From Candidatus Caldarchaeum sp. (GTDB lineage: Archaea > Thermoproteota > Nitrososphaeria_A > Caldarchaeales > Caldarchaeaceae), in contig JAVQUC010000002.1 in assembly GCA_033580815.1 (NCBI GenBank), forward strand, positions 4,259-68,258: a stretch of DNA of 64,000 nucleotides. Reading direction: 5' to 3'. Positions 34,449 to 40,598 of this stretch are shown here, in pieces (the stretch's first letter is position 1; each line of letters starts with the position of its first letter). The translations under genes and the position numbers were made by a program. Below the pieces are notes generated by a model. That model saw nothing but the letters and a program-made list of their open reading frames with translations. It did not search any database and was not told where the DNA came from.

Positions 34449-34469
34449 AAACCAATCTCTTAGAACAGC

Positions 34470-34544
34470 GGGCCCATAGCTCAGCCAGGTCAGAGCGGCC
34501 GGCTCTTAACCGGCAGGTCGCGGGATCAAAGCCCGCTGGGCCCG
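34470..34544 (+). tRNA. tRNA-Lys (anticodon CUU), 75 nt, with no encoded CCA
   Basis: 7-bp acceptor stem GGGCCCA/UGGGCCC, D-arm AGCUCAGCCAGG, anticodon loop CU-CUU-AA, T-arm GGGAUCAAAGCCC. Confidence 0.9.
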
Positions 34545-34601
34545 AAAAATCCGTTTGAAAACTTGAGCGTGGTGTATGTCTGCGCTCCATATGTACGAAG
34601 A

Positions 34602-35345
34602 TCAAAGTCTTTTCACCCCGCGAATGATGTCCGACAATTTGTCCAAGCTCTTCTCGGCGGCCGTACCAGTCACGACGATGTCAGCGCCAGCCTTTGCGAC
34701 GTTTGCGGCGTCGGCGGAAGTTCTTATCCCCCCGCCCACCACCAAAGGTATTTCGATGGATTGTTTGACCGCTTGAATTATTTCTGAGGGAAGAGGGGCC
34801 GGTGCTCCCGACCCTGCCTCGAGGTAGAGAAACCGCATCCCAAGATACTGAGCAGCCAACCCATAACAGATAGCTACTTCACGATGGTTCGGAGAAAGAG
34901 GCAGAACACGGCCCATTGCCGCGACGGTGCTTTCATGCCCGAAAACAACGTAGCCCATCGGAATCGCTTCCAGATTGAATGCTCTAACGGTCAAGGCGCC
35001 TTGAAGCTGCGCCCCCACTATGTAATACCAGTCAACGCTGTTGAGAAGACTCATAAACCAAATCGCGTCGGCGTACTTGGAGATCGACTGAACGTTGTTA
35101 GGAAAAATCAGGACGGGAAGGTTTGTCCTGCTCTTTATAGCCAAGATGTATCTGTCAAGATGTTCTTGAGTATGAAGCGTCGAGCCCCCGACCATTATCG
35201 CGTCAGAGCCGGCTTTCTCAACGTATTCCGATATCTCAGCGGCTTTCTCAAGCGAGACGCTTATTGGGTCGATTAGAGTCATGTGAAGCTTTTCTCCCGA
35301 ACCAATCTTAGACAAAACGTAGTTTTCAACCCTGCCCCGCTTCAA
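34602..35345 (-). CDS. Geranylgeranylglyceryl phosphate synthase (GGGPS, PcrB family), 247 aa
   Basis: TIM-barrel PcrB/GGGPS blocks (LHMTLIDP…, VGGGIRT). First committed step of archaeal ether lipid synthesis. Confidence 0.8.
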   Translation of the reverse strand: MKRGRVENYVLSKIGSGEKLHMTLIDPISVSLEKAAEISEYVEKAGSDAIMVGGSTLHTQEHLDRYILAIKSRTNLPVLIFPNNVQSISKYADAIWFMSLLNSVDWYYIVGAQLQGALTVRAFNLEAIPMGYVVFGHESTVAAMGRVLPLSPNHREVAICYGLAAQYLGMRFLYLEAGSGAPAPLPSEIIQAVKQSIEIPLVVGGGIRTSADAANVAKAGADIVVTGTAAEKSLDKLSDIIRGVKRL

Positions 35346-35583
35346 CGGTTTTTTCTCCCCTCATCACAATATCGTACCACTTTGTGTAGGCGTCGACGTT
35401 GCTGTAGGATGGAAACCATGGAACTTCCGCTGTTGCCTTGCAGTTCCCACAAGCAACAGAGGCCTTATCGCTCCCCCTCTCATGAACAACCGTCACAGCA
35501 ACAGCTCCGCAGAGAGGACATGAGAATACGTTTGGAAAAGGCCTCGGCGTCCTCTTGATTATCTTCCTCCTTTTCCTCCCCAT
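35326..35583 (-). CDS. elf1: Transcription elongation factor Elf1 homolog (Zn-ribbon), 85 aa
   Basis: MGRKRRK basic N-terminus and FSCPLCG…CGNC…VDAYTKWYD match the Elf1 family signature (C4 zinc ribbon, DVYS/WID block). Confidence 0.7.
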   Translation of the reverse strand: MGRKRRKIIKRTPRPFPNVFSCPLCGAVAVTVVHERGSDKASVACGNCKATAEVPWFPSYSNVDAYTKWYDIVMRGEKTVEAGQG

Positions 35584-35629
35584 CGTTAGTTCAAGTAAAA
35601 CTTAACACATACGGTGCATTTAAACTCAA

Positions 35630-36268
35630 TTGAAAATGCCTAAACAGGAAGAGATGGCCAAAAAACGGCCCATAATAGCGGTCGTAACTCGAGACCTTCG
35701 GTTCGCAAAGCGAGTAATCGATGAGGCCCGTAGAAGGGGAATCGATGCGAAACATTTCAACAACTTAGAGGAGGTGTCATTATCGGCGCACGCTATCATA
35801 GCAAAAAAGGGCGAAATCGACAACACAACCGACGAACGAGTAGTCCTATTAAACCAAGACATGACACCGACCGCTATCATAGACAAAGCAATCGAAGTAG
35901 GACTCTGCAAGAGAAATGTAAGAAAAGCGGTTGTCGTGATAGACCCAGGCAAGAAAACCGGCGTTGCTTTTTTCGCGGACGAAATTTTACTGAGATCAGA
36001 GACGTACTATCAAAACGACGTCCTTTCACAAGATTTGGCGGATTTTTTCAAAAATCATGTTGACTGCAAAAAATGCATTTACGTCGGAGAAGGAGCACCT
36101 CAATTCCGCGAGCAACTGATCTCACACCTAACATCAAGAATTCCGAAAATAACCCCCGACATGATAAAGATACTCCCTGAAAAAAATTCTTCTCGGCTGG
36201 CCGGGGGAAAAGACGAAATAGCGGCGACCGTCATTTCGAGAATGCGGAGATCGCGTAAGGTGTTGTGA
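35630..36268 (+). CDS. Hypothetical protein with a YqgF/RuvC-like (RNase H-fold) nuclease domain, 212 aa
   Basis: AVVVIDPGKKTGVAFF resembles the YqgF N-terminal catalytic motif (lGlDlGtktiGvA). A later CIYVGEGAP resembles the ivVGlP motif. The gene is 3 nt upstream of the Clp1-like kinase. Confidence 0.4.
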   Translation: MKMPKQEEMAKKRPIIAVVTRDLRFAKRVIDEARRRGIDAKHFNNLEEVSLSAHAIIAKKGEIDNTTDERVVLLNQDMTPTAIIDKAIEVGLCKRNVRKAVVVIDPGKKTGVAFFADEILLRSETYYQNDVLSQDLADFFKNHVDCKKCIYVGEGAPQFREQLISHLTSRIPKITPDMIKILPEKNSSRLAGGKDEIAATVISRMRRSRKVL

Positions 36269-36271
36269 AAG

Positions 36272-37420
36272 TTGGAGATTTCCGGTGGAAAGACACTTTT
36301 GGTTGACGGGCCTGCAGCCATCAAACTTCTTGAAGGAAGTGTATCAGTTTTCGGATGTAGGCTCAAACCCAGAACGACCTACGTTTTAAGACCTTGGAGA
36401 AGATACCCGATATACGCGCTGCAGGATTCAAAAATCGAAATTAACCCAGGAACGGACTCCAAGGCCACTGTCGTTGAGTCAGGGGACACAACTTGTGAAT
36501 GGAAGCAAGTGGTTGAGAAGATTGAAGACAAAAGAATGTTGGCTGTTTGCGGACCTATCGACAGCGGTAAGACATCGTTCACCACGCTGGCCGCGAACAT
36601 CTTTGCCGAAAAACATGGCCAGTGTGTGGTGGTTAGCTTAGACCCCGGGCAGTCCTATTTTACCCCACCGAGCGTGGTGGGAGCAGCCTATCTGCGTGAG
36701 CCGGTTCACGACCTCGTCATGTTAAAGCCCTTTTTCCAATCACCAGTTGGCTCGACATCCGCCGCCGCATGTGCTGAAGCTTTAGCCGAAGCAGCTGAAG
36801 AAATTTTCAAACAAATTCCGAAGGAATTTCCAGTTGTGGTGGACGTGGACGGATGGGTCGAAGGGCCTCTTGCTGTGTCTCACAAAACCTTGGTTTTGAA
36901 AACCTTGGGGTGCGCTAGCGCCGTGATTTTGGGAGAAAATTTTAACCAGTTAAAGAACGCATTCTCACAAGCTGGAATTCAAGTCGAAGAAGTTAATGTT
37001 TCAGCCTACGTTAAACAAAGAGACCAGCTCGAGCGCAGAAAAACCCGCGAATGGCTTTACAGAAAATTCCTTGGAAAACCAACTCTAAAGATAATTCCAT
37101 CAACATGGGTAATTCTCGAAACAGCGTGTAAGAAAATTGACCCGTTGGCCCTCTTGAAGGAATCGGTAGAGGTGCTTGGAAAGACATCAAGCGAAGCAAC
37201 CGCATCTTCTGAACATGCGACCGCGAGGAAAAAAACAGGCCTTATCTCATACTTCTACGATTCGCAGAATCGTTACCAAGGGATTGGGTTGTTTCTCGGT
37301 TTTAACAGGGAAAAAAACGGTTACAAAATTCTCTCAACAGTCGAGAAGGAGATAGGCAAAATAGTGTTGGGAAGGATTGTGTTGTCGGAGGAAGGTGATG
37401 AAATTCTTCAGTTAAACTAG
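36272..37420 (+). CDS. Clp1/Grc3-family polynucleotide 5'-hydroxyl kinase (382 aa)
   Basis: N-terminal beta-sandwich region followed by the P-loop GPIDSGKTSFTT. The overall length matches archaeal Clp1. Confidence 0.65.
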   Translation: MEISGGKTLLVDGPAAIKLLEGSVSVFGCRLKPRTTYVLRPWRRYPIYALQDSKIEINPGTDSKATVVESGDTTCEWKQVVEKIEDKRMLAVCGPIDSGKTSFTTLAANIFAEKHGQCVVVSLDPGQSYFTPPSVVGAAYLREPVHDLVMLKPFFQSPVGSTSAAACAEALAEAAEEIFKQIPKEFPVVVDVDGWVEGPLAVSHKTLVLKTLGCASAVILGENFNQLKNAFSQAGIQVEEVNVSAYVKQRDQLERRKTREWLYRKFLGKPTLKIIPSTWVILETACKKIDPLALLKESVEVLGKTSSEATASSEHATARKKTGLISYFYDSQNRYQGIGLFLGFNREKNGYKILSTVEKEIGKIVLGRIVLSEEGDEILQLN

Positions 37421-37972
37421 CTTAACTAACCTGACGATTTTTTTCTGGACTAGCGCCTGGGCGTTGGCTGGGTAGATTGTTGCCACATCACCCTCTTTGA
37501 ATGGCCCGTAGCTTCTTAAGTCTTCACCAACGAATTTTGGAAAGTCTCTCAAAAAAACCACTATCTCTAGTTTTTCCTCCTCCTCGGCGAGAAGGGATTT
37601 TGGGTTGCTTAAGCTGTTCTTTATCCTTTCGACATGCTGTAAAAGGGTGCGTTGAATATTGTTGAGGGTTCTTTTTTCGAATGGAAGAGTGTTCTCGATG
37701 GAGTATTGGTTGAAAGCTGCTTCAACAATCTTGCTGAACCGTATCCTCAGTAATGATTCTAGAAGATGTGAAATCATTTCTAGTTCGGCTTTTCTGACGT
37801 AGGTGTTCGGTGATTCTCTTTCACTCAACCTGACTTGACGGCGGATGCTGCCGATGTAACTGCATAATTTCTCGAGAAAATCTTCGGGTATCTGCTGAAG
37901 CTCGCGGTCAAGCCTCTCTCTTTTCCAAAGTTCGAGAAGTCTTTCGTAAACATCCTCCATGTCAGACCTCAT
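37412..37972 (-). CDS. Putative GINS subunit Gins15 (Gins51), 186 aa
   Basis: Alpha-helical N-terminal region plus a small C-terminal beta domain. It lies immediately downstream of priS, as in the Sulfolobus gins15-priS arrangement. Assignment is by context and architecture. Confidence 0.45.
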   Translation of the reverse strand: MRSDMEDVYERLLELWKRERLDRELQQIPEDFLEKLCSYIGSIRRQVRLSERESPNTYVRKAELEMISHLLESLLRIRFSKIVEAAFNQYSIENTLPFEKRTLNNIQRTLLQHVERIKNSLSNPKSLLAEEEEKLEIVVFLRDFPKFVGEDLRSYGPFKEGDVATIYPANAQALVQKKIVRLVKLV

Positions 37973-37987
37973 GTCATACCCTGGGTT

Positions 37988-39220
37988 TTATGGGTTTGCC
38001 AAGGTGGCTAAGCCTTTGCACATGAGGTAGACTGCTGCGAAGGCTGGAAGAGTCACGACCTCGTTTTTATAGGGTCCGAACGATTCTTCCCCGAGGACGA
38101 AATGCGGAGAATGAACAACTCTCACCTTTAATCGAGGTTCTTCTGGGATGACGACAGCTTTCTGCAATGGGTTGAAGTCTTGGAATTCATCGACTTTGAC
38201 GACTGCTGCTTTCAAACCAGTTTTCCCGTTCAGTGTATCTGCGAGACGCAGAAGGCGATGAATATCTGTTGTGACCACTGTGTCAACGTGAGAAGATAAA
38301 TTTTCGACGGCTAGAGATACGATCGACTCCAAGACCGCTTTTTTACCGATGCTAAGCATTTCCCATCTGGGTTTATTGGACCAATGGCTAGCTATCCTCT
38401 GAAGCTCTTTCAACCGCCGGGACCCAACCATATTTTCTAACCTTCGATAAACCTGATTTTCACCGTCAGCAAGACTCGCCAAGATTTTTTTGGTCTCCTT
38501 CGCTATTCTCCCGCGCCATCCCGGCTCGGTGGAGTCTAGAGAGAGGCCGCTCGTTTGTGTCACTATTCCATGCATTCTCAAATCCATCCGGCTTCCGGTT
38601 ACGTAGTCGACGATCTCCTGTCTTTCAGCCCTGCCCAACTCGAGCACATCCTCCGACGGAACCGAAAGATGATATCCACGGTTCCCAGAAAAGCTAATGA
38701 CCAGATTCTCCAGACCAAAGTCTTTTTCCATGAATTCGAGGAGTCGCATCATCTCTTTCTTCGTCTTATCCAAACAAATTCCACATGTCATACGGACATC
38801 CACTGTTTCACCACTGCAATAGGGGCATTTCGTGGATTTTTCAACGAGTTTTCGTCCACATGAGGCACAGATTAGGTAGTCATGTTCTTCCTTGCACGAG
38901 GTCTGCAGGTGGTCGGCGTCGATGTCGAAAATGAGTTCAGCGCCCAACCACCCTTTTTCCTCCATCGGAGCCTGTGGATAGTTGTAGATGGCGGCTGATC
39001 GATAGACGTGAAGTGGCGCCTCTTTGACAAGCGTTTTGTGGAATTCCGCATGATTGCGGAAAGAAAGATGCCTTACCATAATTTTCTGTCCGAAAGGAGT
39101 GTAACCTAGTTCCCTCTTTTCGAAATCAAATGGGATAAAAGGGTTTGTGTAGTCCTTCTCGTAGTATCTCCGAAAAAACTGCTGAACCATCTGGGCGTCA
39201 GTGATATTCCTGAAACTCAT
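37988..39220 (-). CDS. priS: DNA primase small (catalytic) subunit PriS, 410 aa
   Basis: Catalytic IFDIDADH (DxD), SFSGNRGYHL and a Zn-knuckle CASCG…CPYCSG. Confidence 0.85.
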   Translation of the reverse strand: MSFRNITDAQMVQQFFRRYYEKDYTNPFIPFDFEKRELGYTPFGQKIMVRHLSFRNHAEFHKTLVKEAPLHVYRSAAIYNYPQAPMEEKGWLGAELIFDIDADHLQTSCKEEHDYLICASCGRKLVEKSTKCPYCSGETVDVRMTCGICLDKTKKEMMRLLEFMEKDFGLENLVISFSGNRGYHLSVPSEDVLELGRAERQEIVDYVTGSRMDLRMHGIVTQTSGLSLDSTEPGWRGRIAKETKKILASLADGENQVYRRLENMVGSRRLKELQRIASHWSNKPRWEMLSIGKKAVLESIVSLAVENLSSHVDTVVTTDIHRLLRLADTLNGKTGLKAAVVKVDEFQDFNPLQKAVVIPEEPRLKVRVVHSPHFVLGEESFGPYKNEVVTLPAFAAVYLMCKGLATLANP

Positions 39221-39381: not shown

Positions 39382-39455
39382 TGGGCCGGGGCGGACTCGA
39401 ACCGCCGACCTCTGCCTCGTAAGGGCAGCGTCCTTCCAGGCTAGACCACCGGCCC
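39382..39455 (-). tRNA. tRNA-Val (anticodon UAC), 74 nt
   Basis: Reverse complement gives GGGCCGG acceptor stem, D-arm UAGCCUGG, anticodon loop CU-UAC-GA, T-arm GGUUCGAGUCC, discriminator A. Confidence 0.85.
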
Positions 39456-40049: not shown

Positions 40050-40598
40050 GTGCATGGGTTGGAGTTCCCGGTATGTATCTTCGACCTGAAAACCGGTGTC
40101 CTGTGCAGCAAATGCGAGCAGAAACTGCGCGCCGGAGAACTGACGGAGACCGACCTGCAGATAATGCGTTTCTTGGTTGATGCTGAGAAAAAAATTCCCC
40201 AAATTTCATCTTTTGTATACTTTAAAAGTTATAAGACATCCGGATATCTGTTTGTTTTCTTTTTGGAGAGGAGTTTATCATCGTCTCCGGCCAACGTGGT
40301 GGCTGAGTTAGAGAAAGCATTGTCGCAGAAAACTGGGTTGAAGGTGAAGTTGTTGGAGCTCCGTAAAGATTTGAACGTTTTTCTCCAAAACCTCGTCGCT
40401 CCGGCCCGTGTCTTGACAGTCAACAAAGTTTGGCTCCCAGACCAAACCACCGAGCTCAGGGTGTTAGTTGACGACGAAAAGTCTCTAACGGTGTCTCCAG
40501 CCATCTTGTCGGAAGTGGTTAAACACGTCATGAACGTTTCAGTAAGCTTCGAATTCCAGAGAAAAGGCCGTCAACCTCTGACTCGTCCGGCTAGGTGA
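40050..40598 (+). CDS. Hypothetical protein (182 aa) with N-terminal Cys residues that may form a Zn-binding motif. Co-transcribed with aspS.
   Basis: No family recognised. Its stop overlaps the GTG start of AspRS (GTGA). Confidence 0.3.
   Translation: MHGLEFPVCIFDLKTGVLCSKCEQKLRAGELTETDLQIMRFLVDAEKKIPQISSFVYFKSYKTSGYLFVFFLERSLSSSPANVVAELEKALSQKTGLKVKLLELRKDLNVFLQNLVAPARVLTVNKVWLPDQTTELRVLVDDEKSLTVSPAILSEVVKHVMNVSVSFEFQRKGRQPLTRPAR

Follow-up and report, generated by a model that had tools for sequence, protein, structure and literature searches.

The window analysed here, a 64-kb (64,000-nucleotide) stretch of contig JAVQUC010000002.1 from Candidatus Caldarchaeum sp., carries a pair of adjacent plus-strand genes. 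The first, ORF1, encodes a predicted nuclease-fold protein of the YqgF/RuvX clade, whilst the second encodes a Clp1-family polynucleotide kinase (ORF2, or Clp1). A previous sequence-only reading of this locus noted two open reading frames (ORFs) separated by 3 nucleotides (nt) and proposed that they could form an RNA processing or repair module, by analogy with the eukaryotic Clp1 and Grc3 kinases and their partner endonucleases. The spacing was borne out by both the ORF list and the raw sequence, which gave the following arrangement.

35584..35635, no strand assigned: divergent intergenic region, from the Elf1 start (35583, minus strand) to the ORF1 start, read from the sequence
35630..36268, plus strand: ORF1, 212 amino acids (aa), TTG start in the ORF list
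36269..36271, plus strand: spacer 'aag' separating the stop codon of ORF1 from the start codon of Clp1, read from the raw sequence
36272..37420, plus strand: ORF2, Clp1-family, 382 aa, TTG start

Three start codons are available to ORF1, namely TTG at 35630 (212 aa), ATG at 35636 (210 aa) and ATG at 35654 (204 aa). The ATG at 35636 (MPKQEE...) is the likelier start because close homologues begin with MPxxxE, and the ATG at 35654 is a possible one; the predicted domains of the protein are unaffected by this choice. The 3-nt spacing implies that the two genes would be co-transcribed and, probably, translationally coupled. The promoter of the operon presumably lies within the divergent intergenic region, which contains A/T-rich boxes at approximately 35596-35606 (gtaaaactTAA) and at 35620-35625 (TTTAAA). 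A sigma-70 promoter and terminator scan of the locus was uninformative, as that model is not applicable to archaea.

Conservation of the ORF1-Clp1 pair

A scan anchored on Clp1, with each GTDB species represented by a single genome, yielded 80 loci from Caldarchaeales and Bathyarchaeia. The scan patterns were derived from the Clp1 proteins of these two groups, with Thermococcales, Sulfolobales and methanogens outside their reach. An ORF1-family gene was present immediately upstream of Clp1 and on the same strand in 75 of the 79 loci long enough to judge (E values of 1e-35 to 1e-74). Over 80 pairs, the two genes mostly either overlapped, by 4, 17 or 8 nt, or were separated by 2-3 nt. Loci from close relatives (57 % identity) say little about the pairing, because their entire neighbourhood is syntenic with that of the window. 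In Bathyarchaeia, by contrast, the flanks were wholly different, featuring a RadB-like gene and CarS upstream, yet an ORF1-like gene still overlapped Clp1 directly upstream of it. Clustering of all neighbouring ORFs revealed that the ORF1-Clp1 pair was the only arrangement common to Caldarchaeales and Bathyarchaeia. A third deep lineage (L093) was also paired, with an ORF1 just 20 % identical to the window protein and a Clp1 that was 26-31 % identical to the others. The pairing suspected from the window is therefore kept in other genomes amid different flanking genes. This conservation strongly supports the prediction that the locus is a co-transcribed, probably translationally coupled two-gene operon. 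Both ORFs can also be regarded as real genes rather than chance ORFs, given the number of ORF1 homologues and the recurrence of the pair in the 75 informative loci.

Predicted activities of the two proteins

ORF2 is a Clp1 homologue with intact Walker A, Walker B and lid motifs, as Pfam matches and motif conservation both indicated. It exceeded the Pfam cut-offs for CLP1_P (E=2.9e-29; 102.7 bits, cut-off 26.6) and CLP1_N (E=9.5e-6; 26.1 bits, cut-off 22.3), and its sequence matches in the PDB were yeast Clp1, NOL9 and Grc3. An N-terminal beta-sandwich (residues ~14-81) precedes the P-loop kinase domain (94-267), after which comes a C-terminal domain of archaeal type. Motifs were assigned by the definitions in PMC6777427, that is, Walker A GxxxxGK[T/S], Walker B [D/E]hhQ, clasp [T/S/L]xGW and lid RxxxxR. 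The P-loop quoted in the sequence-only reading, GPIDSGKTSF, was found at residues 94-103 and holds the Walker A motif (G94-PIDSGK100-T), in which G94, D97, G99 and K100 were 100 % conserved across 80 orthologues. The same held for the aspartate and glutamine of Walker B (D124-P-G-Q127), the middle residues of which read PG in Caldarchaeales and LG in Bathyarchaeia. The clasp of the window protein (V192-D-G-W195) departs from the consensus at its first residue, which was V in Caldarchaeales and T in Bathyarchaeia, whilst DGW was 100 % conserved. The lid (R250-DQLE-R255) and the additional R259 were conserved at 99-100 %. Clp1 of Pyrococcus horikoshii (PhoClp1), a thermostable 5'-OH kinase acting on RNA and DNA (Jain and Shuman 2009, cited from PMC6777427), has the same Walker A, Walker B and lid motifs and the archaeal C-terminal domain; its clasp motif is one from which the window protein differs in reading VDGW. 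These features strongly support the prediction of ORF2 as a catalytically intact Clp1-type polynucleotide 5'-OH kinase.

Within the orthologue set, many Bathyarchaeia Clp1 proteins (424-434 aa) carried an insertion of ~45 aa in the C-terminal domain (alignment columns ~320-370; e.g. L007:5639-6940 and L009:5653-6924). Caldarchaeales Clp1 lacked this insertion, as did a shorter, 368-aa Bathyarchaeia form (L006).

ORF1 was less readily classified. The motifs on which its earlier assignment had been based were confirmed (VIDPGKKTGVAFF at residues 103-115 and YVGEGAP at residues 151-157), and the protein itself returned no meaningful Pfam, NCBIfam or PDB sequence match; matches to bHLH_STRA8 and RhoD were dismissed as noise. 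A word-indexed search recovered six relatives only, and the nearest homologues of the window proteins were annotated as Candidatus Caldarchaeum. A profile built from these sequences was then searched against 1.8 billion cluster representatives and identified 160 relatives (E<=1e-3; representatives clustered at 50 % identity) of 123-292 aa, mostly about 190-290 aa. A second profile search raised the number of homologues to more than 2000, mostly from Bathyarchaeia. The proteins of this family were labelled hypothetical in every source. In an alignment of 66 members, the motifs GIDPGKxxGxA, iGxG and vxExxTS...DxxSAxxIA were invariant or nearly so. Weak Pfam matches (E<=0.01) were obtained to DUF460 for 30 of the 66, to RuvX for six and to Tex_YqgF for one. 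The DUF460 matches, the best of which had an E value of 1.2e-7, covered the model partially and scored no higher than ~28 bits, below the gathering score. The sole member to reach a Pfam cut-off was P0156 (Tex_YqgF, 27.6 against 27), and the window ORF1 exceeded no RuvX, Tex_YqgF or DUF460 gathering threshold. Searched against the PDB, the family profile matched the YqgF domain of Tex (E=1.8e-3). On these sequence comparisons, ORF1 is best placed in a sister family inside the YqgF/RuvX/Tex_YqgF/DUF460 clade and is a member of no single Pfam family.

A long form of the family (~250-265 aa) was also observed, represented by L090:5001-5765 and L092:5001-5792 (P0039 and P0026) and by P0058 and P0068. 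It is distinguished by a C-terminal extension of ~50 aa with the conserved motif KDIQxxSRIxSxGxxTIPxxLAxKVAxGxxSLExAI, which loosely resembles a swapped-hairpin or AbrB-type domain and had no Pfam match. Neither of the long-form members for which context was examined (P0039 and P0026) adjoins Clp1.

Structure prediction with AlphaFold2 (AF2) and comparison of the models by Foldseek supported the proposed YqgF/RuvC-type fold. Two AF2 models of ORF1, built from 7 and 64 sequences, agreed with one another, with a predicted local distance difference test score (pLDDT) of 79 and 82 and a predicted template modelling score of 0.76 and 0.77, respectively. The domains and predicted catalytic residues are as follows, in the numbering of the 212-aa form.

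35672..35902, plus strand: N-terminal alpha/beta domain, residues ~15-91 (AF2, pLDDT ~90)
35924..36262, plus strand: RNase H-like (YqgF-type) domain, residues ~99-211 (AF2, Foldseek)
35942-35944, plus strand: predicted catalytic D105 (conservation)
36179-36181, plus strand: predicted catalytic E184 (conservation)
36212-36214, plus strand: predicted catalytic D195 (conservation)

The N-terminal domain was modelled in the order beta-alpha-beta-beta-beta-alpha. Conserved positions within it include T20, E32, the 58/59 pair and E62, the pair being T-T in most family members and A-K in the window protein. Foldseek returned loose receiver- or Rossmann-like matches only for this domain. The RNase H-like core was modelled in the order b1-b2-b3-a-b4-a-b5-a, and its best match in the PDB was the YqgF domain of Tex (2oce; E=3.5e-4, 24 % identity over 108 columns, root-mean-square deviation 3.0). 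Other matches included RuvX of Mycobacterium tuberculosis (7ess), DrYqgF of Deinococcus radiodurans (7w89), the RuvC-like domain of the IS621 recombinase, terminase nucleases and a poxvirus resolvase. Foldseek probabilities were ~1.0 for Tex, RuvX and the IS621 RuvC domain, with E values of only 3.5e-4 to 3e-3. These E values are modest, and confidence was low over the final 30 residues of the model. For the fold assignment, several weak but independent lines agree and no single match is strong.

The carboxylate pattern of ORF1, in which one Asp closes beta1, a second acid has been relocated to a position after beta5 and another Asp sits in the C-terminal helix, is of the YqgF/Tex type, an arrangement described by Majorek et al. 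2014 (PMC3985635). Across 80 paired genes D105 and E184 were 100 % conserved and D195 was 93 % conserved, with replacement by H in a few, whilst the beta4 position (residue 154) was variable. The triad was also retained in distant members of the family and in those without an adjacent Clp1. Its spacing resembles that of D22/E106/D122 in DrYqgF, mutation of which blocks or impairs RNase activity. Conservation and modelling together strongly support the prediction of an RNase H-fold nuclease domain with an intact D-E-D metal-binding triad.

An alternative is that ORF1 is a non-catalytic, Tex/Spt6-like adaptor that binds nucleic acid and recruits or regulates Clp1, much as Pcf11, TSEN54 or Las1 bind Clp1 or Grc3. 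The closest structural match, the YqgF domain of Tex, has no known nuclease activity, the acidic position in beta4 is not conserved, and the additional N-terminal domain could serve for contacts with other proteins. In opposition to this, the carboxylates that match the RNase residues of DrYqgF persist even in very divergent members, and the third of them, which Tex lacks (Majorek et al., PMC3985635), is kept in the ORF1 family. We consider an adaptor role improbable.

In comparison with characterized families, ORF1 shares with bacterial YqgF/RuvX (PF03652; Escherichia coli YqgF (EcYqgF), DrYqgF 7w89 and M. tuberculosis RuvX 7ess) the RNase H-like core of the clade with a reversed C-terminal helix, the N-terminal GxDxGxxxxGxA motif and a D-E-D triad with its second acid after beta5 (vxExxTS) and its third in the last helix (DxxSA). 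It differs from them in being archaeal, in its extra N-terminal alpha/beta domain of ~90 aa and in scoring below Pfam thresholds. It differs also in its linkage to Clp1 and RadB-like genes, no such link being reported for bacterial yqgF. DUF460/COG2433 (PF04312), the most common Pfam match of the family, is likewise archaeal-only and falls with it in clade D, close to RuvX and Tex. An RNase H-like fold was predicted for DUF460 in 2014, with no function assigned (Majorek et al., PMC3985635). DUF460 proteins are reported to be long enough for further domains, unlike those of the ORF1 family (~195-290 aa).

Genomic associations and possible roles

Eukaryotic Las1-Grc3, in internal transcribed spacer 2 (ITS2) processing, and TSEN-CLP1, in tRNA splicing, each combine a Clp1-family 5'-kinase with a dedicated nuclease, a combination that appears here as a conserved operon. 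TSEN (EndA fold) and Las1 (HEPN fold) cleave without metal, and of the 2',3'-cyclic phosphate and 5'-OH ends that result, the latter are the substrate of Clp1 and Grc3. RNase H-fold nucleases, in contrast, leave 5'-phosphate and 3'-OH ends. As ORF1 has an RNase H fold with a carboxylate triad, its cleavage should leave 5'-phosphate ends and it would not feed Clp1 in the manner of TSEN or Las1. The hand-off suggested by the eukaryotic analogy, in which the nuclease makes a 5'-OH and the kinase follows, is thus chemically unlikely, and an order of events in which the nuclease creates the kinase substrate was rejected on these grounds. Las1-Grc3 and TSEN-CLP1 are, moreover, physical complexes, whereas for ORF1-Clp1 the evidence is indirect, in the form of overlapping or abutting genes.

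The most widespread neighbour of the ORF1 family was a RecA-family ORF, situated no more than 400 nt from ORF1 in 69 of 93 loci. In Bathyarchaeia (L006-L009, L018-L089) and in the third deep lineage (L093:4257-4952, minus strand) this was a RadB-like gene of ~230 aa, divergent and upstream of ORF1. The top NCBIfam match of its product was RadB, at 111-156 bits, below the equivalog cut-off of 172 bits. A marine Nitrososphaeria-like lineage carried a degenerate RadB-like gene with no recognisable P-loop in the same position beside ORF1 (L096:4314-4955, minus strand). In another contig (L094:2966-4000, plus strand), a true RadA gene (484 bits) abutted the ORF1-like gene on the same strand with zero gap. 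Genes for topoisomerase IA and for an HhH-GPD glycosylase also lay near the Bathyarchaeia pair.

Separately, a gene for an OST3/OST6-like membrane protein of ~140-150 aa recurred near the ORF1-family gene (L006:3094-3516, L091:5656-6108 and L094:2442-2885). Its occurrence spanned Bathyarchaeia, a Heimdallarchaeota metagenome-assembled genome (MAG) and the RadA-linked contig, and it may survive from an ancient gene neighbourhood that they had in common.

Taken together, gene order and motif conservation make it likely that ORF1 is an active nuclease, Clp1 an active kinase, and the two functionally coupled. For their joint role we tentatively favour, with rather less confidence, an end-processing module that leans towards DNA recombination and repair. 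In such a module, Clp1 would convert 5'-OH termini to 5'-phosphates, comparable to the DNA 5'-kinase step of PNKP. ORF1 would cut or trim structured or branched strands by two-metal hydrolysis, leaving 5'-phosphate and 3'-OH ends. Both outputs would carry a 5'-phosphate and could be ligated or handed over to 5'-phosphate-dependent enzymes, with the two activities operating in parallel or the kinase preceding the nuclease. Broken or branched DNA arising in recombination or repair would be the substrate, a choice favoured by a narrow margin from genome context. A DNA role is at least as plausible as RNA processing because the ORF1 family adjoins RadB-like or RadA genes, in some lineages without Clp1 at the locus. 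The convergence of Gins51 and PriS on Clp1 in the window, and the topoisomerase IA and glycosylase genes close to the Bathyarchaeia pair, lend themselves to the same reading. Published precedents are consistent with it. Pyrococcus RadB modulates the resolvase Hjc, which it inhibits when ATP is lacking (PMC10956419). Holliday junctions are resolved by M. tuberculosis RuvX, according to references cited there, and PhoClp1 phosphorylates DNA as well as RNA according to the account in PMC6777427. RadB-Hjc of Pyrococcus furiosus resembles the present association in that a RadA paralogue is tied to a junction-cleaving nuclease (PMC10956419). The resemblance has limits, as the fold of Hjc is restriction endonuclease-like rather than RNase H-like, and here the association is one of gene adjacency that is absent in Caldarchaeales.

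Several observations weigh against a coupled module with a DNA repair role. The evidence for an interaction between ORF1 and Clp1 consists of adjacency and overlap of their genes. Each gene also occurs without the other, and the two are therefore not obligate partners. No ORF1 gene was found within 4 kb of Clp1 in four of the 79 loci (L023, L027, L050 and L059), which belong to two divergent Caldarchaeales and two Bathyarchaeia. Conversely, ORF1-family members with no Clp1 within 4-5 kb (in L094, up to the contig end) were found in several lineages. These included a Hydrothermarchaeota MAG (254-aa long form), a Heimdallarchaeota MAG, a metagenome contig in which a 263-aa long form lay beside PurH and archaeosine TGT, a Caldarchaeales-like contig that retained the PolD, GGGP synthase and Elf1 synteny of the window (L095:4001-4624), and the marine Nitrososphaeria-like lineage. 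Most lineages have the RadB-like neighbour on the strand opposite to ORF1, its scores fall below the RadB equivalog cut-off, and no RadB-like gene adjoins the Caldarchaeales pair or occurs anywhere in the 64-kb window. The C-terminal segment of ORF1, with E184 and D195 in it, was modelled with low confidence (pLDDT ~50). Finally, the documented in vivo roles of Clp1-family proteins all concern RNA processing, PhoClp1 prefers RNA in competition, and the E. coli and D. radiodurans YqgF proteins are RNases, DrYqgF being without resolvase activity (PMC9601230).

The last of these points belong equally to an alternative, nearly as likely, in which the pair licenses and processes RNA 5' ends. Clp1 would phosphorylate 5'-OH RNA generated by EndA at bulge-helix-bulge sites in pre-rRNA or pre-tRNA, by heat-induced transesterification or by toxins, and the YqgF-like enzyme would then act on the 5'-phosphate RNA. 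ORF1 would in that case be a 5'-to-3' exo- or endoribonuclease, for example in pre-rRNA 5' maturation or in spacer and intron clearance, following the logic of Grc3 then Rat1 rather than Las1 then Grc3. Clp1, Grc3 and Nol9 are RNA 5'-kinases of the pre-tRNA, pre-rRNA and mRNA 3'-end pathways, and the substrate preference of PhoClp1 is drawn from the same source (PMC6777427). EcYqgF trims the 5' end of pre-16S rRNA (PMC9601230), DrYqgF is an RNA 5'-3' exo/endonuclease, and the Tex YqgF domain, the best structural and sequence relative of ORF1, belongs to an RNA-binding protein. Genome context contributes as well, in that the Caldarchaeales pair lies among the transcription genes Rpo1, Rpo2, Rpo5 and Elf1, and some family members with no Clp1 beside them are found among ribosomal-protein and translation genes. 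This alternative nevertheless leaves the recurrent RadA/RadB adjacency unexplained. No linked RNA ligase, RtcB, archease, EndA or exosome gene was found in ~95 loci, the lineage restriction of the family is incompatible with a universal archaeal rRNA-maturation factor, and 5'-phosphate dependence is hypothetical for any YqgF. Of the module envisaged in the sequence-only reading, the nuclease-kinase pairing thus stands, whilst its restriction to RNA is not established in view of the RadA/RadB adjacency and the Clp1-less members.

The absence of obligate partnership also raises the prospect that ORF1 and Clp1 are independent housekeeping enzymes, placed on one transcript for genome economy and with no common pathway or complex. 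The ORF1 members without an adjacent Clp1 and the four Clp1 loci without ORF1 would be expected of such an arrangement. In addition, no ORF1-Clp1 fusion was found among the best 150 of the 160 family representatives, all of which were no longer than 292 aa, and the product chemistry of the nuclease mismatches the substrate of the kinase. Against this, the genes retain their order, strand and near-zero spacing at 75 of 79 loci and across three lineages with protein identities of just 20-30 %, whilst all the other neighbours changed. Conservation of gene order of this kind is a classic signature of functional coupling in prokaryotes. We therefore regard independent enzymes as unlikely.

A more specific form of the DNA repair role is that Clp1 of TACK-type archaea, instead of or in addition to processing RNA, would be the missing PNKP-like DNA 5'-kinase of break repair, cleaning 5'-OH DNA ends together with the RuvX-like, structure-specific nuclease and the RadB-like ATPase. 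We offer this as speculation that is doubtful on present evidence. A candidate source of such ends would be eukaryote-type topoisomerase IB, the match in distribution being drawn from the literature only; the enzyme is reported in Thaumarchaeota, Caldiarchaeum and MCG/Bathyarchaeota (PMC4824112, PMC4571567).

Two further origins for the locus were ruled out. There was no PADLOC match for ORF1 or the window Clp1 that would indicate a defence system, and no Clp1 relatives were present on viral contigs, as would be indicative of a viral or mobile origin. PHROG matches were weak and included a Holliday junction resolvase family (E=4e-3).

The components of the pair are of known kinds. Its combination of Clp1 with an RNase H-fold nuclease, and the link to RadB, appear to be undescribed in the literature searched. 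A full-text search found no paper naming Clp1 together with YqgF, the sole paper combining Clp1, Holliday junction resolvase and archaea was unrelated, and a large survey of Clp1 did not discuss gene neighbours. The eukaryotic relatives of Clp1 have central parts in the processing of tRNA, rRNA and mRNA and in human disease. For archaeal Clp1, the kinase activity of which was shown in 2009, a dedicated and conserved partner gene offers an experimental handle on its role in the cell. A further outcome of the analysis is an archaeal family of the YqgF/RuvX clade that had not been annotated before, distinguished by its additional N-terminal domain and by RadB or RadA as another recurrent partner. 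If DNA is its substrate, the module would represent an archaeal PNKP-like end-healing step; if RNA, it would be the prokaryotic equivalent of kinase-licensed RNA trimming, with a nuclease fold differing from that of eukaryotes.

Flanking genes of the window

Upstream of the pair, the minus-strand genes encoded the RNA polymerase subunits Rpo1, Rpo2 and Rpo5, GGGP synthase and Elf1, with tRNA-Lys in the same region. Downstream, Gins51 and PriS converged on Clp1 and were followed by tRNA-Val, Alba and AspRS. The features for which coordinates were recorded are given below.

34469-34545, plus strand: tRNA-Lys(CTT), Rfam/ARAGORN, no intron reported
34602-35345, minus strand: GGGP synthase (PcrB), its start overlapped by 20 nt by the Elf1 gene
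35326-35583, minus strand: homologue of the Elf1-type zinc-ribbon transcription elongation factor (Pfam E=9e-16), divergent from ORF1
37412-37972, minus strand: Gins51, converging on Clp1, the 3' ends overlapping by 9 nt
37988-39220, minus strand: primase subunit PriS, beyond Gins51 and convergent toward Clp1
39382-39455, minus strand: tRNA-Val(TAC), Rfam/ARAGORN, no intron reported

The two tRNA genes were the sole Rfam/ARAGORN matches in the window, and since both lie elsewhere, an RNA gene hidden at the ORF1-Clp1 locus was ruled out. A conserved ORF of 182 aa (40050-40598, plus strand) was situated directly 3' of Alba, overlapped the AspRS start and had a CxxC-containing N-terminal segment. 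Neither this ORF nor its 179-aa counterpart in the relatives L001 and L005 had a Pfam match. The pairing of Elf1 and PcrB was kept in L001, L005 and L095, and the convergence of Gins51 and PriS on Clp1 was also seen in the close relatives L001-L005.

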